Part shown: one piece after another, positions 9,501-58,708 of the stretch
Layout: each line of letters begins with the position of its first letter
How positions within the stretch are numbered: the first letter of the stretch is position 1
Assembly: GCA_944326485.1 (NCBI GenBank)
Contig: CALVED010000006.1
Location: 18,944-82,943 of the forward strand
Length of the DNA: 64,000 nucleotides
Direction of reading: 5' to 3'
From: Candidatus Gastranaerophilales bacterium
GTDB lineage: Bacteria > Cyanobacteriota > Vampirovibrionia > Gastranaerophilales > Gastranaerophilaceae
Made by a program: the position numbers and the translations under genes
The notes under the pieces: generated by a model
Database searches by the model: none
Seen by the model: the letters and a program-made list of their open reading frames with translations, nothing else
What the model was told of the DNA's origin: nothing

Positions 9501-9554
9501 GATTATAGTAAGAAAATATTTATAGAAAAAATTCACGATAAGCTAAAAGTGTGA
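6507..9554 (+). CDS. cheA: hybrid CheA-type histidine kinase (Hpt, long N/K-rich linker, HATPase, CheW domain, C-terminal receiver-like domain)
   Basis: Hpt motif HSLKGASRMLGF. N box HILRNAVSHGIE. G boxes DDGYGIN and GRGIGLD. CheW-like segment FIILVNDQKYAIPVN. The C-terminal ~120 aa are receiver-like. The last codons and the stop lie inside repeat module A. Confidence 0.9.
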   Translation: MQYNPEELDEILNIYKAESEEIIQELNDGFLELEKNPENKEPLKKLFQLVHSLKGASRMLGFNSVQDISHKLEDILSYWKKEGTIIEKNSFQVIYEVCDLINELIIKSVQQKSDYIDNNVMVFLNKLDNFILSEKPIDNSEKIVKKENYLVEKSKDIDAIILELIFILGKNNEKDNIDEILSVIVDNINLLYEIFNKTEYDNVKNHIKEILNEINNNNDKENAILKFKEQIKSLKDEIYIIFKDLNINLSSAKLRKKEETKVEKEEKQRCNEDIEKKFDLLLKNLPKIKYEKNYINKVNEELKSLIVLSNNKQTEIIISKTLNILKLFQDKDILIDNECYMVILQSIYLAKRMSLNEKEENLNNLNFLIQRLNVVEDMFKITNLRKQKTNNDELKIQPQSKSSIIDIDTIKNNINSFELQEIKTLRVDTSKLDNLISQTGELLVNGIKTREHLFELSNINMKLIQWNSASKKIINYLKYLEKKGFFNTEFDDSAFVFYKKAQNFFWNNADMITDIQKDFNRLYNIISEDDNKLHQTAMEIETIAKGIRVLPLATIFHSFPRMIRDIAIENKKKVDFIVSGSDTTVDKKLIEEIKMPLIHILRNAVSHGIEVPEERIKNGKKDIGIVKLSAKQAENNVIITIEDDGYGINLEKVKKTAISKGILTEEEIENITNEQLMKLLFLPGFSTEDSVNEISGRGIGLDIVKTKINNLNGDIYIDSILNKGCRVTIKLPVSMSTIKTFIILVNDQKYAIPVNAIKYVKRINKNDIFDKNGQNYIIYDEHSIPIYSLSEVLGEKSETILQEKQLTVIIIENQERQAAFVIDKLLGDQEVFHKKLELPIIKIKNISGFTTLSTGEICLIVNPYELIRNTILTNYLSSFDIKQIGKDNEVNLYEKRLVIYGDNSFEFIKKDIEEEYKNVITFNNIYSVHDYIQKNEIDIFICKFNNEEKDKELIKLIKYIKNDENLSKIKIVIFSDLTIIEILNVLEGIKPDLYIKINDYSKKIFIEKIHDKLKV

Positions 9555-9704
9555 GTGAATTTTTTCTACAAAACGAACAAAACTTTGTCTTTGAGTGTGC
9601 TTGTATCCTTAGTGAAACGAAGGTGAGGAGCGTTTTCAAAAGGTAAATACTTTGTTCGCTAGGATGCCGATGTAACAATGTTTTTGATACTATATTTGTT
9701 AAAT
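9521..9704 (+). repeat. family-1 modular intergenic repeat, full A-B-C copy (copy 1)
   Basis: AAAAAATTCACGATAAGCTAAAAGTGTGAGTGAATTTTTT..ACAAAACGAAC..GTGAAACGAAGGTGAG..TACTTTGTT..TGTAAC. The 5' end lies inside the cheA 3' end. The degenerate 3' end overlaps the stop of the minus-strand acyltransferase. Confidence 0.85.
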
Positions 9705-12267: not shown

Positions 12268-12289
12268 ATACAATAGAATCAAATAGGTT

Positions 12290-12377
12290 GTCCGATAAAA
12301 ATTCACAATAAGCTAAAGGTGTGAGTGAATTTTTTAGAGAGTATGACTCGGGAACAAAGTGCAATCCTTGATTAAAT
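12290..12377 (+). repeat. family-1 repeat, short copy (module A plus truncated C) (copy 2)
   Basis: GTCCGATAAAAATTCACAATAAGCTAAAGGTGTGAGTGAATTTTTTAGAGAGTATGACTCGGGAACAAAGTGCAATCCTTGATTAAAT. Confidence 0.85.
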
Positions 12378-12644
12378 GTTGTTCATAACTTAACACTACT
12401 TAACAAAAAATAAGAAAAAATTTTTTATGCAAAAATTAAAAAATATAAAATAAAAAATTGAATTTTATAGGTTTTTATTTATTAATTTCGAGTTTTTCAA
12501 AATTATTTTTATAAAAATTAAAAAAAATATAAAAAAAAATAAAATAAAATTAAAATAAGAAGTGTATAAAATACAATAAATTTCTTTAAAAAAATTTTTG
12601 CTTGGTATACAATATTAAAGCTGATGTAAAGAGGACTATTAATC

Positions 12645-15137: not shown

Positions 15138-15166
15138 GTCCGAAAAAACTCAAAGTAAGATTAAAG
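15138..15166 (+). repeat. possible extremely reduced family-1 copy
   Basis: GTCCGAAAAAACTCAAAGTAAGATTAAAG resembles the 5' GTCCGAGAAAAA and 3' AAAGTG..AGATTAAAT ends fused. Tentative. Confidence 0.35.
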
Positions 15167-15168
15167 TT

Positions 15169-15344
15169 GTCTAAGAAAAAATTCACTCACACTTTCAGCA
15201 TATCGTGAATTTTTTTACAAAACGAATCACAAACTTTGTTTTTTTGTGAGTTTATATTTTTCGTGAAACGAAGGTGAGAGATGTTTTAAAAAGGTGAGTA
15301 CTTTGTTGCCGAGTCATCCTCGCTAACAAAGTGATAATTTTAAT
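15169..15344 (+). repeat. family-1 repeat, full copy with both hairpins flipped (copy 3)
   Basis: The outer sequence is in canonical orientation. The module-A interior reads TCACACTTTCAGCATATC, the reverse complement of the canonical GATAAGCTGAAAGTGTGA. The module-C hairpin reads GTTGCCGAGTCATCCTCGCTAAC, the reverse complement of the canonical form. Confidence 0.9.
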
Positions 15345-15514
15345 AATATGAATGAATATTCTTTTGTAATAAATTATAGTTTCAGATTAGAATAAAAAAC
15401 TAAATATTAATAAAATAGATTGTTAAATAATGTAAAGAGTAAAACGAAATAGTATAAATAAAATTAAAAATCTTTCGATATTATAAATAAGTTTATAATT
15501 AGGAAAGGTTAGAT

Positions 15515-16801
15515 ATGTGTGCTGATGGAGTAAATTTCGGTGATTATTTAGTAAGAAATGAAAGATGGCTTATTGATGATAATGAGACTGCGGAAACAAA
15601 AAGTGTTGACGGTAAATTATCAGATAACGAAATTTCTATATTTTTTTCAAATACACATATAAATACAGATGGTGATGATGAGATTTCATCTTCTGAATTT
15701 GATAATTGGTATTCTGCCAATTCAAGTGCAATATCAGCATATTTAGATGATATTGGTGCAGATTATAATGATGCAAGTGTAAAAGCTGCTATGCTTGAAT
15801 CTATGACGAGTTTTATGCAAAGTTCACAAAATTCGGATATTGAATTAATGCACCTTAATGAAGATACAGATAGTATTGTGTTGGGAGAAATGTCAATGCC
15901 TACAGCTGATCAAATTTCTTCTCCAACAAAAACAGAAGGAGACGATACAACTCCTGCAACAAATCAATATAGTGAGGCTGCTCAGTCTTATTATGATTCA
16001 ATGAAAAATCTATCAGAAATTAAAAGTTCTTTAAATCCAAATTCATATCAAGATAAAGTAGAATCAATAATTAGTGATATTGTCAATGATAAGAATATTG
16101 ATTCAAGCGAAAAATTGGCGTTATTAGAAGATATATCAACAATGGAAAAAGACGTATTAAAAGATTATTTTGCGGAAAATGATGTATTTTATATTAATGC
16201 ATTAGAAGAAATAGTATCAAATGAAAATTATACAATAGAAGATGTAATGAATTTAACTAAGCGATATAATGCTTTGCAAGGAGATGATACTACAATAACA
16301 ATTCCTCAAAATTCAATATTAAAAAATGAATTGTTTGAAAATTTAATTTCTGTTACTGAAAAAGCAGCATCATCAGGTCAATTAGAAAATTTAATAAAAT
16401 CAGGATTTACTGAACCAAGTAAATTGGCAACAATGATTCAACAAAATTATAAATGGTCAGATGAAACAAACTATTTAAAAAGAATAATGAATGCAATTGG
16501 AAGTAATAAATCTATTGATCCTGCAGATTATCAATTAAACGATGAACAGGTTGATTTGTTAAAGAAAGATTATTTAGAATATCAATTTGTTAGTCTGGAA
16601 AAAGTTGTTGATGAAAAAGATTCAATGTTTAATATTATAAAAGCAAGTAAAGAAGGAACTTTAGATAAAAAAGTTGCTCAGTTCTTGTTACAAGATTTAT
16701 TCGGTGGAGATATGTCTTCATTGATTGATACATTCAGATCTTTATCAAGTGGTAATGAAGAGAAATATTTAGAAGAATTAATAGATATATATATGACGTA
16801 G
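15515..16801 (+). CDS. acidic hypothetical protein with EF-hand/dockerin-like Ca-binding loops
   Basis: 428-aa ORF with RBS AGGAAAGG. Loops VDGKLSDNEISIFF and NTDGDDEISSSEFDNWY. No signal peptide seen. Confidence 0.5.
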   Translation: MCADGVNFGDYLVRNERWLIDDNETAETKSVDGKLSDNEISIFFSNTHINTDGDDEISSSEFDNWYSANSSAISAYLDDIGADYNDASVKAAMLESMTSFMQSSQNSDIELMHLNEDTDSIVLGEMSMPTADQISSPTKTEGDDTTPATNQYSEAAQSYYDSMKNLSEIKSSLNPNSYQDKVESIISDIVNDKNIDSSEKLALLEDISTMEKDVLKDYFAENDVFYINALEEIVSNENYTIEDVMNLTKRYNALQGDDTTITIPQNSILKNELFENLISVTEKAASSGQLENLIKSGFTEPSKLATMIQQNYKWSDETNYLKRIMNAIGSNKSIDPADYQLNDEQVDLLKKDYLEYQFVSLEKVVDEKDSMFNIIKASKEGTLDKKVAQFLLQDLFGGDMSSLIDTFRSLSSGNEEKYLEELIDIYMT

Positions 16802-20388: not shown

Positions 20389-20510
20389 GTCCGAGAAAAA
20401 ATTTACGATAAGCTGAAAGTGTGAGTGAATTTTTTCGAGTGGCGTTTCCAAAAGGTGAGTACTTTGTTACCGAGTCATCCTCGCTAACAAAGTGCGATAC
20501 TAGATTAAAT
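20389..20510 (+). repeat. family-1 repeat, short A-C copy with flipped module-C hairpin (copy 5)
   Basis: ..GTGAGTGAATTTTTTCGAGTGGCGTTTCCAAAAGGTGAGTACTTTGTTACCGAGTCATCCTCGCTAACAAAGTGCGATACTAGATTAAAT. Lies between the glnA stop and its GC-rich terminator. Confidence 0.92.
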
Positions 20511-20517
20511 AAGGAAA

Positions 20518-20547
20518 AGAAGCCATAAAATATGGCTTCTTTCTTTT
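20518..20547 (+). terminator. intrinsic terminator downstream of glnA and repeat copy 5
   Basis: Stem AGAAGCCATA / TATGGCTTCT followed by TTCTTTT. Confidence 0.75.
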
Positions 20548-20602: not shown

Positions 20603-20679
20603 GGCGGGCATCGCCAAGCGGTTAAGGCCTCGGATTGTGGTTCCGATATACGTGGGTTCGAATCCCACTGTCCGCCCCA
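20603..20679 (+). tRNA. tRNA-His (anticodon GTG), encoded G-1 and CCA
   Basis: Manual fold. G-1 pairs with C73. Acceptor GCGGGCA/TGTCCGC. Anticodon stem TCGGA/TCCGA with loop TTGTGGT. T arm GTGGG-TTCGAAT-CCCAC. 3' CCA present. Confidence 0.9.
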
Positions 20680-27014: not shown

Positions 27015-27150
27015 CAAGATTATGTAAATTTATTTTAATTTTATAGCGTATTTTAAATTAACTTACAACAAGATGTAAATATAAGTAATTATTATAATAA
27101 GAGTTGTTTTTACATAGCTATTCTTTAAGTTCAATGTTATAATTACTTAA

Positions 27151-27201
27151 GTCTTTGTTTTCGAGGATGACTCGGTAACAAAGAGCGATACTAAATTAAA
27201 T
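27151..27201 (+). repeat. family-1 repeat, 3' (module C) stub (copy 6)
   Basis: GTCTTTGTTTTCGAGGATGACTCGGTAACAAAGAGCGATACTAAATTAAAT. Confidence 0.8.
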
Positions 27202-28496: not shown

Positions 28497-28555
28497 TATA
28501 AAAAGTGTTCTAATTCTTTAACATAATATAATTTTAATGCTATTATGCTTAATAT

Positions 28556-28748
28556 ATCCGAGAAAAAATTCACGATAAGCTGAAAGTGTGAGTGAATTTT
28601 TTTACAAAACGAACCAAAAACTTTGTTTTTGAGAGAGTTTGTATCCGTAGTGAAACGAAGGTGAGTGGCGTTTTTAAAAGGTGAATACTTTGTTAGTGAG
28701 GATGACTCGGTAACAAAGTGCGATACTAGATTAAATATTAGATTAAAT
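28556..28748 (+). repeat. family-1 repeat, full copy with duplicated 3' terminus (copy 7)
   Basis: Near-consensus A-B-C copy. The terminal TAGATTAAAT occurs twice (28727..28736 and 28739..28748). Confidence 0.92.
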
Positions 28749-33155: not shown

Positions 33156-33185
33156 TTAAGTAGCAACAAGTCTTTTATCTTCCAT
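33156..33185 (-). pseudogene. truncated sixth MEDKRL-family cassette (9 codons then stop)
   Basis: The minus strand reads ATG GAA GAT AAA AGA CTT GTT GCT ACT TAA, preceded by GGAAAAATCA. It is identical in sequence to the conserved 5' end of the five intact paralogs and abuts the helicase gene stop. Confidence 0.7.
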
Positions 33186-33217
33186 TGATTTTTCCTTTTA
33201 ACAATATATTCTACAAC

Positions 33218-33544
33218 TTAAGAAAATAATGAGGAAACTGCGATACTAACAAAAAGAATATAAGCCATAAAGAAAAAATAAATAAAAGCGAATATATTAA
33301 ATAATATTTTTGTAATTTTCAAAATTTTTTCATTTTTAATATTTTTAAATTTAATAATATTATTAATTAAAATTGCAAGAATAGGAATAGGAAAATAAAA
33401 AGAAAAAAATATTATAATTCTTATAAAATGTTCAAAATCTTTAATATGACCAATATAGAAAAGATCAATAATAGTGGAGGAAAAAGCAAAAACAAAGAAA
33501 ATAATAATATCTTTTTTAGTAGCAACAAGTCTTTTATCTTCCAT
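33218..33544 (-). CDS. small 3-TM membrane protein, MEDKRL-family paralog (108-aa short form)
   Basis: Conserved N-terminus MEDKRLVATKKDIIIFF. Three hydrophobic segments. Shared motif ILINNIIKFKNI..LKI.K.LFNIF. SD-like spacer upstream. Confidence 0.7.
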   Translation of the reverse strand: MEDKRLVATKKDIIIFFVFAFSSTIIDLFYIGHIKDFEHFIRIIIFFSFYFPIPILAILINNIIKFKNIKNEKILKITKILFNIFAFIYFFFMAYILFVSIAVSSLFS

Positions 33545-33554
33545 TGTTTCTCCT

Positions 33555-33935
33555 TTAACAAATAAAGTTTTGAATTATGTTTAAAGTAAGCTCTGAACTT
33601 TCTTTATATAAATTCATATCTTTGTAAAAATATTTATTAAAAGTATAAATAAAAGAAGTAAATACTCCCATAAATATAATAAAGATAAAAGAGAAAATAT
33701 TAAATAATATTTTTGTAATTTTTAGAAATTTTTCATTTTTAATATTCATAAATTTAATAAAAGAATTAATTAAAATGGCAAGAACAGGCTGGATAAAATA
33801 AAATAAACATATTGAGAATTTATGAAAAAAATCTTCTATATCAATATACATACAAGAAAAAATAGTAAAAGAAAAAGCAAAAATAAAGAAAATAATAATA
33901 TCTTTTTTTGTAGCAATAAGTCTTTTATCTTCCAT
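33555..33935 (-). CDS. small 3-TM membrane protein, MEDKRL-family paralog (126-aa long form)
   Basis: Differs from the 33946..34326 product at one residue (I6 versus V6). The AGGAGAAACA spacer is 10 nt. Confidence 0.75.
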   Translation of the reverse strand: MEDKRLIATKKDIIIFFIFAFSFTIFSCMYIDIEDFFHKFSICLFYFIQPVLAILINSFIKFMNIKNEKFLKITKILFNIFSFIFIIFMGVFTSFIYTFNKYFYKDMNLYKESSELTLNIIQNFIC

Positions 33936-33945
33936 TGTTTCTCCT

Positions 33946-34326
33946 TTAACAAATAAAGTTTTGAATTATGTTTAAAGTAAGCTCTGAACTTTCTTTATAT
34001 AAATTCATATCTTTGTAAAAATATTTATTAAAAGTATAAATAAAAGAAGTAAATACTCCCATAAATATAATAAAGATAAAAGAGAAAATATTAAATAATA
34101 TTTTTGTAATTTTTAGAAATTTTTCATTTTTAATATTCATAAATTTAATAAAAGAATTAATTAAAATGGCAAGAACAGGCTGGATAAAATAAAATAAACA
34201 TATTGAGAATTTATGAAAAAAATCTTCTATATCAATATACATACAAGAAAAAATAGTAAAAGAAAAAGCAAAAATAAAGAAAATAATAATATCTTTTTTC
34301 GTAGCAACAAGTCTTTTATCTTCCAT
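33946..34326 (-). CDS. small 3-TM membrane protein, MEDKRL-family paralog (126-aa long form)
   Basis: Near-identical tandem duplicate of 33555..33935. Confidence 0.75.
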   Translation of the reverse strand: MEDKRLVATKKDIIIFFIFAFSFTIFSCMYIDIEDFFHKFSICLFYFIQPVLAILINSFIKFMNIKNEKFLKITKILFNIFSFIFIIFMGVFTSFIYTFNKYFYKDMNLYKESSELTLNIIQNFIC

Positions 34327-34355
34327 TGATTTTTCCTTATATAAGAGTTTGTATT

Positions 34356-34682
34356 TTAATCAAAAAAATTACTCATTGAATAACAAAATGATAAAAATAA
34401 TGACATAAAAATAAAATAAATTAAAGTAAAAATGTTAAATAATAATTTTATAATTTTTAAAGTTTTTTTATTTCTTATATCTTTAAATTTAATAATATTA
34501 TTAATTAAAATTGCAAAAATTGGAGGAAAAAAATAAATTGAAACAAATAATATTTGAGTAAAAAAGAAATGAAGATTTTCTATTTTGCCAAACCCCCAAA
34601 AGTCAATAATAGTATAAGAAATTGCGATAACAAAGAAAATAATAATATCTTTTTTTGTAGCAACAAGTCTTTTATCTTCCAT
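34356..34682 (-). CDS. small 3-TM membrane protein, MEDKRL-family paralog (108-aa short form)
   Basis: MEDKRLVATKKDIIIFF N-terminus with diverged TM regions. Same length class as 33218..33544. Confidence 0.7.
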   Translation of the reverse strand: MEDKRLVATKKDIIIFFVIAISYTIIDFWGFGKIENLHFFFTQILFVSIYFFPPIFAILINNIIKFKDIRNKKTLKIIKLLFNIFTLIYFIFMSLFLSFCYSMSNFFD

Positions 34683-34692
34683 TGTTTCTCCT

Positions 34693-35073
34693 TTAACAAA
34701 TGAAGTTTTGAATTATGTTTAAAGTAAGCTCTGAACTTTCTTTATAAAACTTCATTCTTTCATAAGAATCTTTATTAAAAGAATTAACACCAGAAGCAAT
34801 TAATCCCATTAATGCAATATAAAGAAAAGAGAAAATGTTAAATAATATTTTTGTAATTTTTAAAAATATTTCATTTTTAATATTCATAAATTTAATAAAA
34901 GAATTAATTAAAATGGCAAGAACCGGCTGGATAAAATAAAATAAACATATTAAGAACCTATGAAAAAAATCTTCTATATACATATACATATAAGAAAAAA
35001 TAGTAAAAGAAAAAGCAAAAACAAAGAAAATAATAATATCTTTTTTAGTAGCAACAAGTCTTTTATCTTCCAT
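34693..35073 (-). CDS. small 3-TM membrane protein, MEDKRL-family paralog (126-aa long form, diverged)
   Basis: Shares the N-terminus and the C-terminal tail YKESSELTLNIIQNFIC with the other long forms. Lies 10 nt after the stop of the 452-aa ORF with an AGGTGAAACA spacer. Confidence 0.75.
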   Translation of the reverse strand: MEDKRLVATKKDIIIFFVFAFSFTIFSYMYMYIEDFFHRFLICLFYFIQPVLAILINSFIKFMNIKNEIFLKITKILFNIFSFLYIALMGLIASGVNSFNKDSYERMKFYKESSELTLNIIQNFIC

Positions 35074-35083
35074 TGTTTCACCT

Positions 35084-36442
35084 CTATTTTTGATTTAAAA
35101 TAGCATTTTTTTCTTCTTTTGGTATTATAACACGATATATTGAAAAATAAGGGGTTATTTTCCCTTTTTCTTGCCTGTTTCTTGCTGCTCTTACAACATC
35201 ATTTTTTTCTCCTTCGTTAAAATCATATACATCTGTAATATATAGTTCAACATCTCCATCTTTATTTATATGCATGTTTTTAATATCTGCATGACCAATA
35301 GCATTTTGCCAGTTGTAATCTTCAAAATTAATGCTTTCATTAATAAAATAGTTTTTGTTCATTGCTTTATTATATTTTTTTAATTTATTAATAAAGTTAG
35401 AATCTTTTATTAGGGCATTTTTTAAACTTTCAGATGATTTTGAATTTACATCTATAAAAATACCTTTTGTTTTTTCTAAATTTTCTTTACCTATTTGCTG
35501 GGTTATTTTATTTTTAAAATATTCTTTAAAATTATCAGGCACTTCGTTATAACTATTATAAATTTTATGTTTTTTAGCGTAAGGTGTATTCATGTAGTAT
35601 TTTGTTTTAGCCATGTGTAAATTTTCTACAGCCTCATCATCTGTTTTTGTAATAAATTTGCTAATTTCTTTTACTATAGGATTATTAATATGGTCTATGG
35701 CAATTTGTTTAGGTATGGCATGAAATCTAAGGTATCTTTCGTTTTCTTTACTGATTTTTTTGCTTCGTTCTTTTATAGCTTCTGCTCTTATTCGTTCAAC
35801 CGTTTCGTTGCCCGGAGTGGATGGGAATTTTAAATTGTTTATAGTTTCTATTCTGAAAGGTTTTGGAGCTGGTTTAGGAGTAATTGTGTTACCTTCAACA
35901 ATAAAATCGTTATCGTTAAGCCCGTAGTTTCTTAAAGATTTTTTATATTGCATTTTATCATTTGTATTAGGAACTTGGGCTTTAATTTCCTGTTGAGTAT
36001 TATCTAAATTGTTTTCATTTTCGTTTGTATTTTCAACAGGCTCATTTTCACTTATTTCTTTATCATCGGCAGTTTTGTTTTTCATTTCAGGATAAAATAA
36101 CTCTGCAACTTCATCATAATTTTTTTGTTTTGGGTCTGTTTTTTTTGTTTTGTCTTTGCTTGTTTCTCTGTCATTTTTATTTTCTGAATTTTCTTTACCC
36201 TCTTCCATATTATCTTTAGAGTTTTTATCTTCATTAGATTTTATTTCTTCTGCTTTAATATTTTCATTTTCTGTTTCTTCCTCATCAGTAATAGATTCTC
36301 CAAGCATTTTGCCTGATTTTTTTGTATTATTATTCTTCTTCTCGGTATTGTTGTAAAGAATATCTGCCCTTTTTTGCAGTTTATCTTCATTATTTGTTTT
36401 ACTGTTTTCTTCTTTAAATTTTTTTAACGGATTAAACCCCAT
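35084..36442 (-). CDS. 452-aa protein of unknown function (charged, disordered N-terminal half; globular C-terminal half); first gene of the cassette operon
   Basis: Long ORF with RBS AGGAAAGGGAA. The N-terminal ~200 aa are rich in K/E/N/D. I do not recognise the C-terminal region (..NWQNAIGHADIKNMHINKDGDVELYITDVYDFNEGEKNDVVRAARNRQEKGK..). No signal peptide. Confidence 0.7.
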   Translation of the reverse strand: MGFNPLKKFKEENSKTNNEDKLQKRADILYNNTEKKNNNTKKSGKMLGESITDEEETENENIKAEEIKSNEDKNSKDNMEEGKENSENKNDRETSKDKTKKTDPKQKNYDEVAELFYPEMKNKTADDKEISENEPVENTNENENNLDNTQQEIKAQVPNTNDKMQYKKSLRNYGLNDNDFIVEGNTITPKPAPKPFRIETINNLKFPSTPGNETVERIRAEAIKERSKKISKENERYLRFHAIPKQIAIDHINNPIVKEISKFITKTDDEAVENLHMAKTKYYMNTPYAKKHKIYNSYNEVPDNFKEYFKNKITQQIGKENLEKTKGIFIDVNSKSSESLKNALIKDSNFINKLKKYNKAMNKNYFINESINFEDYNWQNAIGHADIKNMHINKDGDVELYITDVYDFNEGEKNDVVRAARNRQEKGKITPYFSIYRVIIPKEEKNAILNQK

Positions 36443-36488: not shown

Positions 36489-36494
36489 AGTATA

Positions 36495-36527
36495 TCTGAG
36501 AAAAAATTCCTTATAAACTGAAAGACT
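36495..36527 (+). repeat. family-1 repeat, degenerate 5' (module A) stub (copy 8)
   Basis: TCTGAGAAAAAATTCCTTATAAACTGAAAGACT. Confidence 0.55.
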
Positions 36528-36714
36528 TATTATCTAACCATTACATTTTTAGTATAAACTTTTCTTGTAGCTTTTCAAGTCTGCCTCATTAAAATTAGCA
36601 GGTTTTTAAAAATTAAAAGAAGGCAAAACCATGATGAATACTAAGTGGCAGCATTTTGTAAATATTTATTACATTATAATGTAAATATGAGTATAATGTA
36701 CATAATAATGTAAG

Positions 36715-37710: not shown

Positions 37711-37743
37711 ATAAGTATTTTACAACAAATTATGATAGAGTGT

Positions 37744-37791
37744 GTCCGAGAAAAATTCACAATAAGCTGAAAGTGCGATACTAGATTAAAT
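37744..37791 (+). repeat. family-1 repeat, minimal copy (5' end fused to 3' end) (copy 9)
   Basis: GTCCGAGAAAAATTCACAATAAGCTGAAAGTG|CGATACTAGATTAAAT. The junction lies inside the AAAGTG hexamer, which occurs at both places in full copies. Confidence 0.9.
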
Positions 37792-39270: not shown

Positions 39271-39378
39271 ATTATCTATTTAAGAATATTTTTATAATAA
39301 TCAAATCTGACTGTGTGTATAATAACTTTTATTATATTTTGTGCAAAAAAATTTATATTATATTTTGAATTATTATTT

Positions 39379-39404
39379 GTCTAAGAAAAAATTCGCGATA
39401 AGCT
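39379..39404 (+). repeat. family-1 repeat, 5' stub abutting the murI stop (copy 10)
   Basis: GTCTAAGAAAAAATTCGCGATAAGCT. Confidence 0.7.
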
Positions 39405-42247: not shown

Positions 42248-42339
42248 ATTAATAATAATAAACTTAAATGTGTGAATATCAAATATTTAACAAAAAATAA
42301 AAGAATAAGAACGAGTTAATATCACTATTTATTTAATTT

Positions 42340-42365
42340 GTCTGAGAAAAATTTCACGATAAGCT
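42340..42365 (+). repeat. family-1 repeat, 5' stub (copy 11)
   Basis: GTCTGAGAAAAATTTCACGATAAGCT. Confidence 0.7.
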
Positions 42366-42382
42366 TCGGTATAGTTAAAAAT

Positions 42383-43055: not shown

Positions 43056-43123
43056 TTTTTTGAGTGACATTTACAAAAATTGAGTATTTTGTTTGTGTGA
43101 ATGAAACGGTAACATAGTATAAT
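43056..43123 (+). repeat. degenerate family-1 fragment (parts of modules B and C)
   Basis: TTTTTGAGTGAC..TTGAGTATTTTGTT..GTGAATGAAACGGTAACATAGTATAAT, compared with consensus TTTTTGAGTGAGC..GGTGAGTACTTTGTT..CGGTAACAAAGTGCGATAC. Confidence 0.4.
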
Positions 43124-43153
43124 GCCATTAAAAAAGAGTTCAATTGAACTCTT

Positions 43154-43654: not shown

Positions 43655-43768
43655 TTTTCTTCTCCGTTATAACTTAGTACCGCAATAAGTATTAAGCATA
43701 AATATGTAATTTCATATTACATAATAGATTAGAAAAAGAATTATAAAGGATTAGTACAATAGGAGTAT

Positions 43769-43950
43769 GTCCGAGAAAAAATTCACTATATGCTGAAAGA
43801 GTGAGTAAATTTTTTTTACAAAACGAACCAAAAATTTTGTTTTTTACTGAGCTTGTATCCGTAGTGAAACGAAGGTGTGCAAAGTTTTCAAAAGGTGAGT
43901 ACTTTGTTGGCGAGGATGAGAAGGTAACAAAGTGCGATATTAGATCAAAT
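43769..43950 (+). repeat. family-1 repeat, full copy (copy 12)
   Basis: GTCCGAGAAAAAATTCACTATATGCTGAAAGAGTGAGTAAATTTTTTTTACAAAACGAACC..GTGAAACGAAGGTGTGC..GGTGAGTACTTTGTTGGCGAGGATGAGAAGGTAACAAAGTGCGATATTAGATCAAAT. Confidence 0.92.
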
Positions 43951-45170: not shown

Positions 45171-45237
45171 TATAAACATATTCTAAAATCAAGATAAAAA
45201 TTATAATTTTATTTGTAATGTAAATTTTATTAATAAT

Positions 45238-45428
45238 GTGCGAGAAGAAATTCATGATAAGCTGAATGTATGAGTGAATTTTTTTCCAAAACGAAAACGA
45301 ACCAAAAACTTTGTTTTTGAGTGAGCTTGTATGTATCAGTAGTGAAACGAAAGTGAATGGTGTTTTTAAAAGGTGAGTACTTTGTTAGCAACGATGAGAA
45401 GGTAACAAAGTGCGATACTAGATTAAAT
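45238..45428 (+). repeat. family-1 repeat, full copy with small insertions (copy 13)
   Basis: GTGCGAGAAGAAATTCATGATAAGCTGAATGTATGAGTGAATTTTTTTCCAAAACGAAAACGAACC..GTGAAACGAAAGTGAATGG..GGTGAGTACTTTGTTAGCAACGATGAGAAGGTAACAAAGTGCGATACTAGATTAAAT. Confidence 0.9.
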
Positions 45429-46949: not shown

Positions 46950-46972
46950 GGTCGCATAGCGACCTTTTTTTT
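46950..46972 (+). terminator. orphan intrinsic terminator (no upstream CDS)
   Basis: Stem GGTCGC / GCGACC with loop ATA, followed by T8. The rplT terminator lies about 130 nt upstream. Confidence 0.7.
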
Positions 46973-46975
46973 ATA

Positions 46976-47157
46976 ATTTAATCTAGTATCGTACTTTGTT
47001 ACCTTCTCATCCTTGCTAATAAAATGCTCTCCTTTTAAAAACTTTGCTCACTTTCGTTTTACAACGGATACAAACATAGTCAAAAACAAAGTTTTTGGTT
47101 CGTTTTGTAAAAAAAAATTCACTCACACTTTCAGCTTATCTTGAATTTTTCTCGGAC
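46976..47157 (-). repeat. family-1 repeat, full copy in reverse orientation (copy 14)
   Basis: The plus strand reads ATTTAATCTAGTATCGTACTTTGTTACC..CTCACTTTCGTTTTAC..CAAAAACAAAGTTTTTGGTTCGTTTTGTAAAAAAAAATTCACTCACACTTTCAGCTTATCTTGAATTTTTCTCGGAC. Confidence 0.92.
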
Positions 47158-47190
47158 AATATAATATATAAGAAAAATAACTGCACAAAA

Positions 47191-47240: not shown

Positions 47241-47265
47241 GATAAAGTGTAATACTGGGTTAAAT
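47241..47265 (+). repeat. family-1 repeat, 3' stub (copy 15)
   Basis: GATAAAGTGTAATACTGGGTTAAAT, compared with consensus AACAAAGTGCGATACTAGATTAAAT. Confidence 0.65.
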
Positions 47266-54172: not shown

Positions 54173-54293
54173 ATTATAATTCAGTATTTACTTTGTTACA
54201 ACGCTATCATTGCTGACAAAGTACTCGCCTTTTGAAAGTGCTGCTCATAAAATCTACTCAAACTTTTCGCTTATTGTTAATTTTTTCTCTGAC
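54170..54293 (-). repeat. family-1 repeat, degenerate short (A-C) copy in reverse orientation (copy 16)
   Basis: The plus strand reads ..CAGTATTTACTTTGTTACAACGCTATCATTGCTGACAAAGTACTCGCCTTTTGAAAGTGCTGCTC..ACTCAAACTTTTCGCTTATTGTTAATTTTTTCTCTGAC. Confidence 0.7.
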
Positions 54294-54424
54294 GTATTAA
54301 GTTTATATTCAAATTTTAAACATATAATTATATATACACCGCTAGACTTGAATTTAAATATTTTTGTAATAAAATCATGATAAATGACTTTAAAAGCTTA
54401 CTAAATAAACACTAGAGGATTTAC

Positions 54425-56509: not shown

Positions 56510-57646
56510 ATGTCAAAAGAGAAGAAAACAATAAAAGTTGCGTTTCCTCATATGGGTAATGTATATATTGCTTGGGCTTCTGCACTTAAAAAATTAGGTG
56601 TAGAGCCTTTTGTTCCTCCATATTCAAGTAAAAGAACACTTGAACTTGGTACAAAGTACAGCCCTGATTCAATATGTTTGCCATACAAGTTAATTCTTGG
56701 AAATTTTATGCAGGCGATAGAAAAAGATGTTGATTACGTTGCTATGATATCTTCTCCGGGAATTTGCCGTTTAGGTGAGTATGGACAAAGTATAAGAAAT
56801 ATATTAAAAGATTTGGGCTATGAATCTAAATATGTTGAACTTCAATTGTATGATGGGTTTAAAGGAATGTATAAATTTCTTACAGAGTTAACTGGTGTTC
56901 ATAATCCTATTATCATTATCAAATCTATTAATATAGCTGTCAGAAAGATGTTTGTTCTTGATAGAATTGAAAATTTATATTCATACTATAGAGCAAGAGA
57001 AATAAATATTGGCAGCGCAGAAAAACACTACAATAAGGCATTATCGTTAATTTTTGATGCAAGTACTACTAAAGAATTAAAAAAAGCGGAAAAAATTGCA
57101 ACAGAAGAAATAAAAAAAACAGAAATAGATAGTAAAAAAGATGTTGTAACTGTTGATATAACGGGAGAAATATTTCTTGTTCAAGATCCTTTCTCAAATC
57201 AAAATATTGAAAAGGAACTTGGGAAAATGGGAGTTCAGACAAGAAGAAGTTTAACTGTTTCAAGTTTTTTAAAAGATGCAATTATCCCTAAATGGTTTAA
57301 AAAAGGAGAAACTCATTTGGAAAGGGCATTTAGAATGGCTAAGCCATACCTAATGAGAGATATTGGAGGCGATGCTTTGGAATCTGTAAGTGATGTAGCT
57401 TATGCAAATGAGAGAGGCGTCGATGGTATTATTCATATAAGTCCATTTACTTGTATGCCTGAGATAATGTCACAAAATATTTTTCCTACAATGAGAGAAG
57501 ATTGTGAAATTCCTATTCTTACTTTAATTATGGATGAACAAACAGGGCGTGCCGGCTATATTACTAGACTTGAAGCTTTTGTTGATTTAATGAAACGTAG
57601 AAAATTTTATAAAAGAAAACAACAGTTATCTGAAAAAGTTTCTTAA
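56510..57646 (+). CDS. DUF2229-like protein (CoA-enzyme-activase-associated / 2-hydroxyacyl-CoA dehydratase-related)
   Basis: FPHMGNVYIAWASALKKLGVEPFVPP..SPDSICLPYKLILGNF and FTCMPE segments resemble the uncharacterised domain found with BcrA/HgdC-type activases. Called from memory only. Confidence 0.45.
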   Translation: MSKEKKTIKVAFPHMGNVYIAWASALKKLGVEPFVPPYSSKRTLELGTKYSPDSICLPYKLILGNFMQAIEKDVDYVAMISSPGICRLGEYGQSIRNILKDLGYESKYVELQLYDGFKGMYKFLTELTGVHNPIIIIKSINIAVRKMFVLDRIENLYSYYRAREINIGSAEKHYNKALSLIFDASTTKELKKAEKIATEEIKKTEIDSKKDVVTVDITGEIFLVQDPFSNQNIEKELGKMGVQTRRSLTVSSFLKDAIIPKWFKKGETHLERAFRMAKPYLMRDIGGDALESVSDVAYANERGVDGIIHISPFTCMPEIMSQNIFPTMREDCEIPILTLIMDEQTGRAGYITRLEAFVDLMKRRKFYKRKQQLSEKVS

Positions 57647-57649
57647 ATT

Positions 57650-57770
57650 ATCCGAGAAAAAACTCACATAAGCTGAAAGTGCAAGTGAATTTTTTAGAGT
57701 GGCGTTTTTAAAAGGTGAGTACTTCGTTCGCGAGGATGATTCGGTAACAAAGTGCGATACTGGGTTAAAT
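57650..57770 (+). repeat. family-1 repeat, short A-C copy (copy 17)
   Basis: ATCCGAGAAAAAACTCACATAAGCTGAAAGTGCAAGTGAATTTTTTAGAGTGGCGTTTTTAAAAGGTGAGTACTTCGTTCGCGAGGATGATTCGGTAACAAAGTGCGATACTGGGTTAAAT. Starts 4 nt after the upstream stop. Confidence 0.92.
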
Positions 57771-57805
57771 TTTTAAAGTTTTAAATAATATAAATTAAAA
57801 TATAT

Positions 57806-58254: not shown

Positions 58255-58304
58255 TTCTCCTTTACTTTAATCATATCAAAAATTAAATTTAGTTCAATTA
58301 ATAT

Positions 58305-58483
58305 ATCCGAGAAAAAACTCACGACAAGCTAAGTGTGAGTGAATTTTTTTTACAAAACGAACCAAAAACTTTGTTTTTGAGTGAGCTTGTATCCATAGTG
58401 AAACGAAGGTGAGCAGAATTTTCAAAAGTGAGTACTTTGTTACCGAGAATGATTCGCTAACAAAGTGCGATACTGGATTAAAT
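58305..58483 (+). repeat. family-1 repeat, full copy with variant module-C hairpin (copy 18)
   Basis: ATCCGAGAAAAAACTCACGACAAGCTAAGTGTGAGTGAATTTTTTTTACAAAACGAACC..GTGAAACGAAGGTGAGCAG..AGTGAGTACTTTGTTACCGAGAATGATTCGCTAACAAAGTGCGATACTGGATTAAAT. Confidence 0.92.
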
Positions 58484-58708
58484 TTGACTCTGTTAAGAAA
58501 TGTAAATCACTCAAATGCACTCCTGTATTGAAATAATAAAAATAATAAAAAAAAACAAATAAATTAAGCAATTATTGAAGAAGTATATACTTTATATATA
58601 TGTAGATGATAAATTAAATAATCAAAAATAAATAATTAAAAATTTTATATTCATACTTACCTTACTTACTACCTTTACTAACACACGAGGAAATTGAAAA
58701 AAATTTCA

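Follow-up and report, generated by a model that had tools for sequence, protein, structure and literature searches.

Inversions confined to the loop of a hairpin, which replace it in place by its reverse complement and leave the stems untouched, have been described as products of template switching in organisms that include Bacteria (Loytynoja & Goldman 2017; Monttinen & Loytynoja 2022, PMC8794818). Such "loop inversion only" events, bacterial ones included, are ascribed to switching between strands, and the rRNA loops concerned are mostly of 4 nt, with a maximum of 7-8 nt (PMC8794818). Template switching at inverted repeats is also documented in E. coli (PMC7202029, PMC5941160), where the mechanism proposed for the quasipalindrome mutagenesis studied by Ripley (1982) and the Lovett laboratory is a switch of the nascent strand from one arm to the other during replication. 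Small inversions of 5-50 bp are found in the stem-loops of plastid genomes, between inverted repeats of 11-24 bp (Kim & Lee 2005, via PMC12928735); they are usually credited to recombination between the arms. Two orientations of a hairpin interior between identical palindromic arms are also produced by the flip/flop of parvoviruses and AAV, whose terminal hairpins undergo hairpin transfer in each round of replication of a linear ssDNA replicon, and two orientations of a whole segment by the invertons, which are hundreds of bp long and have specific sites, a cognate invertase and mixed populations. As for architecture, pneumococcal BOX (boxA-boxB-boxC; PMC3049150) is a short, modular, hairpin-rich and intergenic repeat with an optional middle module, and the orientation of its boxB is reported there to affect expression.

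The window considered here, by which we mean the whole 64,000-nucleotide stretch that was analysed, is chromosomal DNA of an uncultured gut bacterium, Candidatus Gastranaerophilales. It is AT-rich (28.5% GC) and carries housekeeping genes, among its genes being GAPDH, glyQ, NadE, GlnA, rplJ/rplL and chemotaxis genes. Scattered through these 64 kb is a non-coding, modular interspersed repeat, present ~19 times when full copies, short copies and fragments are all counted. Its copies fall into two sharp length classes, one of 180-181 nt (A-B-C) and one of 120-121 nt (A-C), module B being optional. In its canonical form the arms of hairpin A, AAAAAATTCAC and GTGAATTTTTT, are of 11 bp and enclose an 18-nt loop, GATAAGCTGAAAGTGTGA; hairpin B is nested and lies centrally in the full copies; and hairpin C reads ACTTTGTTA-G-CGAG-GATGA-CTCG-G-TAACAAAGT, with a G.G mismatch and a GATGA loop, which amounts to 9-bp perfect arms around a 15-nt spacer. 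The canonical 3' tail is GCGATACTAGATTAAAT. The copies in the window, and the individual hairpins of copy 3, are the following.

9524..9694, plus strand: canonical full copy, partly degenerate
12289..12380, plus strand: canonical short copy, with A and part of C
15168..15349 (region 15163-15352), plus strand: copy 3, full A-B-C, outer and central sequence canonical, both hairpin interiors inverted
15176..15215, plus strand: module-A hairpin of copy 3, 11-bp arms as in the canonical form, 18-nt loop at 15187-15204 inverted
15300..15332, plus strand: module-C hairpin of copy 3, arms ACTTTGTT(G) and TAACAAAGT, inverted interior CCGAGTCATCCTCGC (15309-15323), with a C.C mismatch and a TCATC loop
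16797..16987, plus strand: copy 4, canonical full copy; with copy 3 it brackets a 428-aa ORF
20389..20510, plus strand: copy 5, short A-C copy, A canonical (20396-20435), C inverted (20461-20493), a polymorphic insertion
27149..27201, plus strand: canonical fragment, C and 3' tail only
28550..28738, plus strand: reference canonical full copy, hairpin A at 28563-28602, B central, C at 28687-28719
37740..37791, plus strand: mini-copy that has lost its interior by deletion between AAAGTG direct repeats (A loop and 3' tail)
43061..43127, plus strand: degenerate C-module fragment, canonical
43765..43950, plus strand: canonical full copy
45236..45428, plus strand: canonical full copy
46975..47158, minus strand: canonical full copy, the entire element being inverted and not a single hairpin
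54190..54301, minus strand: degenerate short copy
57642..57773, plus strand: canonical short A-C copy
58298..58486, plus strand: full copy whose C hairpin (58434-58466) is a hybrid, C..C mismatch, inner CGAG-AATGA-TTCG canonical

Decayed derivatives of the repeat lie at 37740-37791, 39376-39403, 42337-42366, 36489-36532 and 47244-47265; they comprise the AAAGTG-deletion mini-copy listed above, three 5' fragments, two of which end directly after GATAAGCT, and one lone 3' tail.

It had been proposed in the preliminary description that single hairpins are turned around inside otherwise collinear copies, and the sequences bear this out, every string quoted there being found in the window. The module-A loop of copy 3, TCACACTTTCAGCATATC (15187-15204), lies between perfect 11-bp arms and is the reverse complement of the consensus at 17/18 positions, while GTTGCCGAGTCATCCTCGCTAAC at 15305-15327, in module C of the same copy, differs at 1 position from the consensus read on the minus strand. 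Copy 5, described as canonical in A and flipped in C, is exactly that, its C module (20466-20488) being an exact reverse-complement match to the consensus. Copy 18 was said to combine the flipped-type C..C positions with a canonical loop; it does so in the string ACCGAGAATGATTCGCT, with a canonical inner hairpin CGAG-AATGA-TTCG, but this string is at 58439-58461 and not at 58441-58463 as first given. The sequence between and around the flipped interiors stays collinear with that of canonical copies throughout. All of the flipped interiors have an unchanged length, are exact or near-exact reverse complements and retain intact perfect arms; dinucleotide shuffles gave an expectation of ~0 chance matches for such patterns.

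The hybrid C hairpin at 58434-58466 could have arisen by a pair of substitutions or by two inversions, one nested in the other. If the outer inversion is taken first and then an inner one across the CGA/TCG stem, the hairpin is reproduced bar one loop substitution and the G.T wobble falls on the correct side, so that the hairpin may have undergone a second inversion nested within the first. The alternative would be a pair of symmetric G-to-C substitutions.

With the copies oriented by their non-palindromic landmarks, strict scoring was possible for 26 A modules and as many C modules, in the window and in Gastranaerophilales loci. The ~27 copies with intact landmarks, which come from two species, include 2 with a flipped A (window 15168 and L049:1156), 4 with a flipped C (window 20389, L052:2325, L059 at ~6466, and window 15168) and 1 with a hybrid C (window 58298). 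Module C of 15168 fell outside the strict scan on account of its degenerate tail, and the strict count for C is 3/26; the flipped fractions are ~7% for A (2/26) and 15-18% for C. Inversion affects A only in the L049 copy, C only in 20389 and in the L052 and L059 copies, and both at 15168, with the hybrid state at 58298. All four combinations of A and C states are found and the two hairpins therefore change independently, as had been suggested from the window alone.

Were the flipped copies merely an old sublineage with other diagnostic differences, as the preliminary description allowed, they should not have canonical copies as their nearest relatives. This is nevertheless what was found, with 95-99% identity outside the interiors: when the interiors are masked, the L049 and L052 copies are 98.8% and 97.7% identical, respectively, to the copy of L027, and 20389 is 95-96% identical to several copies. 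These three flipped copies are, moreover, among those closest to the consensus, and flipped copies in general are over-represented among the young, consensus-like ones. Either inversion requires perfect arms or it is in some way tied to transposition.

To follow individual loci, orthologues were collected by exact-protein look-up of the flanking genes, which yielded numerous conspecific contigs, independent of one another, from metagenomes and MAGs. The locus of copy 3 includes a neighbouring reading frame:

15515..16801, plus strand: 428-aa ORF without a Pfam match, between the direct repeat copies 3 (15168) and 4 (16797)

Twelve contigs with this ORF are identical to the window bar three scattered SNPs (one of them G/A at 15308), and all twelve are flipped. 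The ORF is absent from five other contigs of the same species (L001, L002, L005, L009 and L010), where a single recombinant between copies 3 and 4 remains, and these five have a canonical A loop, GATATGTTGAAAGAGTGA. All five retain the left flank GTCTAAG that is specific to copy 3; four of them (L002, L005, L009 and L010) also retain a GAATCGC segment of the copy-3 type, which L001 does not, its crossover having been earlier. The crossover point differs between contigs. The canonical loop and the flipped loop of 15168, which reads GATATGCTGAAAGTGTGA when turned back, share a locus-specific GATATG. In the outgroup species L022, whose flanking genes are ~88-95% identical, module A of the 15168 orthologue is canonical. 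The comparison of orthologous loci called for in the preliminary description has therefore revealed both A states at one locus, flipped in the window and canonical in the five contigs and in L022. Since both the sister haplotypes and the outgroup are canonical, A must have been inverted in place, in the lineage that led to the window haplotype.

The loss of the 428-aa ORF shows that recombination between repeat copies mediates gene loss. The same locus carries a further deletion in L004 and has neither the ORF nor the repeats in lineage L186. The ORF was also considered as a mobilisation gene or transposase for the repeat and rejected in this role: Pfam gives no match for it, and the corresponding site in L022 holds a 220-aa ORF to which its N-terminal part is homologous.

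At 20389 the C module is flipped in 9/9 of the filled alleles, diverged ones included, and the inversion could therefore date from the insertion of the copy and not from later replication. Eleven further loci (9524, 12289, 27149, 28540, 43061, 43765, 45236, 47158, 54301, 57642 and 58298) vary by SNPs and 1-nt indels only, with no difference in orientation among 3-12 assemblies at each; the hybrid state of 58298 is likewise fixed. The "flip-flop" of the preliminary description, in the sense of an ongoing process, is thus not what we see: at 13 loci, with 3-12 independent consensus assemblies each, there is one fixed state per locus among near-identical haplotypes. There is no sign of active switching, judged from consensus assemblies, which cannot reveal rare subpopulations.

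Two explanations suffer directly from these comparisons. The first is that the flipped states are artefacts of assembly or consensus building, a concern raised at the outset and one that gains some substance from the frequency with which contigs break at repeat copies. However, assemblers use k-mers longer than these arms of 9-11 bp, which leaves no ambiguity of orientation, and the same flipped state recurs in 12 contigs at 15168 and in 9 at 20389, from different samples and different assemblers; the likelihood of an artefact is virtually nil. The second is a programmed inversion by a site-specific recombinase, that is, an inverton or phase-variation switch. In its favor, the segments are flanked by inverted repeats and exist in two orientations. 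On the other hand, each locus is in a single state among the 3-12 assemblies of near-identical haplotypes, segments of 3-18 bp are far too short for duplex looping, and the arms of A, of C and of the two terminators described below are unrelated in sequence. A Pfam scan of 21 window ORFs also disclosed no transposase or recombinase gene, nor is there one among the Pfam labels given to neighbouring genes. Programmed inversion is consequently a highly improbable explanation.

Ordinary hairpins behave in the same way. In 35 kb of orthologous alignments, a scan was made for clusters of mismatches that disappear when the segment between two arms of 5 bp or more is locally reverse-complemented. This gave two clean cases, both at single-copy, terminator-like hairpins:

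20519..20539, plus strand: terminator hairpin GAAGCCATA-AAA-TATGGCTTC, with the loop TTT in L137, L138 and L142
47192..47212, plus strand: ordinary hairpin AACCCGCAT-TAT-ATGCGGGTT, with the loop ATA in L145 and L146

Neither has a paralogous donor or any sequence in common with the repeat. The inversion of terminator loops between strains means that the process is generic and not specific to the repeat, and, with no donor and no shared sequence, neither gene conversion nor site-specific recombination can serve as a general explanation. A search of the literature on loop inversion in bacterial terminators returned nothing.

Gene conversion deserves a further word with regard to the repeat itself, whose many copies offer potential donors and whose copies do recombine with each other, as the ORF-less recombinants of copies 3 and 4 attest. 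A short patch from an oppositely oriented copy, paired through the palindromic arms, would deliver the loop in inverted form. Yet the flipped A loop of 15168 keeps the GATATG of its own locus, common to the canonical orthologue, and donors on the minus strand are rare (2/19 in the window). When the donorless terminators are added to this, conversion from another copy appears very unlikely.

We think it probable that the flips are rare, heritable template-switch inversions which can occur at any perfect hairpin and become fixed in a lineage, and that they are neither programmed nor rapidly reversible. The exact reverse complement made in place, the unaltered perfect arms, the independence of the modules and the occurrence at any perfect hairpin bear the signature of inversion across short inverted repeats. 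In such an event the nascent strand, having copied one arm, would cross the replication fork to the complementary strand, copy the spacer backwards and return at the other arm, the arms being left unchanged and the interior converted to its exact reverse complement. The same process would be expected to act on any perfect hairpin of the genome, ordinary terminators included. The choice of template switching over other kinds of arm-to-arm recombination is inferred from the sequences. It is favored because duplex synapsis and efficient RecA recombination both call for more than arms of 9-11 bp and loops of down to 3 nt, arms of this size being below the minimal length for the latter. It is favored also because template switching is documented at inverted repeats in E. 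coli and has been invoked for events in which only the loop is inverted. A point against it is the size of the spacers, since 15-18 nt exceeds the loops reported for bacterial rRNA hairpins, although it is within the 5-50 bp of the plastid inversions.

Reciprocal recombination between the stem arms of a cruciform or hairpin, RecA-dependent or not, would invert the spacer with an outcome in the sequence identical to that observed, and it is the process usually credited for the plastid inversions. Against it stand the very short arms (9-11 bp) and spacers (15-18 bp) of the repeat, in view of what is generally known of duplex synapsis and RecA, and the terminators, whose 3-nt loop between 9-bp arms cannot bend as a duplex. 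It is for these reasons that we regard arm recombination as unlikely. Among the mechanisms listed in the preliminary description, template switching and recombination across the arms do both fit the data; site-specific inversion, which was also on that list, does not, since the arms differ from module to module and terminators invert as well.

A different kind of explanation is that orientation is set when the element is mobilised, by way of a single-stranded or hairpin-primed intermediate resembling that of the parvoviral flip/flop, so that new insertions may arrive already flipped. Several observations are in keeping with it: the flipped C in all nine filled alleles of the polymorphic 20389 site, the position of the flipped L049, L052 and 20389 copies among those nearest to the consensus, and the layout of the repeat, which has hairpins A and C in subterminal positions. 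Its ends, TCCGAG... and ...CTAGATTAAAT, show no inverted-repeat relationship, and the absence of terminal inverted repeats sets it apart from MITEs. An IS200/IS605-derived palindrome-associated element or a member of a REP/RAYT system, for comparison, would be expected to have subterminal hairpins at both ends, no such terminal repeats and a bias of orientation along the replichore. As to strand, 17 of the 19 copies and fragments in the window are on the plus strand, where the GC skew is +0.12, regardless of the orientation of neighbouring genes; this 17:2 bias suggests an orientation preference relative to replication and is also among the points in favor of the mobilisation reading. However, 15168 changed its state in place, single-copy terminators show the same change, the flipped fractions of ~7% for A and 15-18% for C are not the ~50% to be expected, and neither a Y1 (HUH) transposase nor a RAYT gene was detected among the window ORFs scanned. 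An origin of the flips at mobilisation is therefore distinctly unlikely.

In a more specific form of this idea, the hairpins would be the recognition structures of a ssDNA mobilisation system, and a hairpin-primed or hairpin-transfer step in transposition would scramble their orientation. Besides the 20389 alleles, the youth of most flipped copies and the strand bias, a hint in this direction comes from the contig CAZNEN010000012.1, binned as Muribaculaceae, which has (at L062:4739-5410) two GC-richer A-C variant copies around ~400 bp; in their module C the G.G mismatch and the GATGA loop persist in spite of a stem altered to CGAC/GTCG. The presence of this variant on a contig so binned could be due to misbinning or to horizontal transfer. 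We would give the specific form just as little weight, but if it were true the flipped copies would be a record of a transposition mechanism that is undescribed for bacterial interspersed repeats.

As for the element itself, a module-A pattern scan of GTDB, with one genome per species, returned mostly chance palindromes, and the true element is confined to Gastranaerophilales contigs (the MAGs CALURV01, CALUSW01 and CALVAK01 carry it) plus the one Muribaculaceae-binned contig. No copy was found by scanning JGI metagenome contigs with two patterns and IMG/VR, and the repeat matches no Rfam family at either gathering or permissive thresholds. A test for RNA covariation detected compensatory change at only 2/40 predicted pairs (covariation term +1.04), which is no meaningful support for a structured RNA, the similarity of the copies being too great for covariation to appear; the asymmetry of G.U versus A.C in the stems was equally uninformative. 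We searched the literature on repeats in Gastranaerophilales and found nothing relevant.

The insertions of the repeat are polymorphic. At 20389 the site is empty in L140, a strain whose GlnA protein is identical, and likewise in L022, a related species, and lineage L186; the latter two also lack the 12289 copy. A sister lineage with 84-92% identity is without all four of the copies between GAPDH and the tRNA and has only a terminator between the permease gene and NadE. Short direct repeats resembling TTAAAT occur at both junctions of the repeat, their extent being ambiguous, so that neither the exact ends nor a target-site duplication is fixed by them. We would class the repeat as an apparently non-autonomous interspersed element, previously undescribed and BOX-like in its architecture.

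Some further variation was noted along the way. In L148, at the position orthologous to 46965-47170, the minus-strand copy is replaced by unrelated GC-rich repetitive DNA with an assembly gap. Metagenome contigs (L165-L169, and those ending near 28540) frequently stop at or beside repeat copies; the family therefore fragments short-read assemblies of this organism. Downstream of the tRNA at 20604-20676, gene content varies among strains with an identical GlnA protein, the variable genes including a large serine recombinase, DUF4236, DprA/RecQ and a pyruvyl transferase, and this tRNA looks like an integration hot spot. Finally, the minus strand at 33157-35088 carries a tandem array with a period of ~391 nt and five paralogous small ORFs (of 108 or 126 aa), adjoining a 452-aa ORF (35084-36442); 2 ORFs tested there gave no Pfam match.

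The practical consequence of hairpin inversion is that it mimics a cluster of 5-13 substitutions in an alignment, and as such it can inflate estimates of divergence, lead the phylogeny of a repeat family astray and disturb the modelling of RNA or DNA motifs. The present family offers a clean natural example, with spacers of 15-18 nt that are large for the class, modules inverted one at a time and polarity derived from orthologues; it also documents a previously undescribed repeat of the Gastranaerophilales that causes gene loss and breaks metagenome assemblies.

How, then, does this family relate to the systems described previously? Invertons likewise have inverted repeats around a segment in two orientations, but none of their other attributes, from the length of hundreds of bp to the mixed populations, was seen here. 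The parvoviral flip/flop shares the two orientations of a hairpin interior between identical arms; in that case, however, the hairpins are terminal and stand at ~50:50, whereas ours are internal to a chromosome, rarely flipped and fixed. The likeness to BOX noted here is one of architecture: BOX has IS-like terminal inverted repeats, which the Gastranaerophilales repeat lacks, and inversion hairpin by hairpin is not described for BOX in the excerpted text of PMC3049150. The plastid inversions match ours in size and, according to PMC12928735, also occur in both orientations among related lineages; they are nevertheless organellar, usually explained by recombination and often homoplasious, while here only one repeat locus has both states within the species. 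With E. coli quasipalindrome mutagenesis we would share the proposed switch of the nascent strand between arms, but there imperfect arms are corrected to perfect ones and the spacer is not inverted, the word "inversion" being absent from PMC5941160. Hairpin inversion is neither peculiar to this repeat family nor unfamiliar in bacteria, given that terminators invert too and that loop inversions in bacterial rRNA had already been described (PMC8794818). The type of mutation is thus a known one and no new biological mechanism is revealed. What is new is the setting, an interspersed repeat in an uncultured cyanobacterial relative, together with the size of the spacer for a bacterium, the module-wise independence and a possible nested event. 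The template-switch inversions of loops (Loytynoja & Goldman 2017; Monttinen & Loytynoja 2022, PMC8794818) share with ours the reverse complement made in place between untouched stems, and compared with the short rRNA loops among them, those of the repeat are of 15-18 nt, are carried by interspersed copies and were, in one case, apparently inverted a second time within the first inversion.
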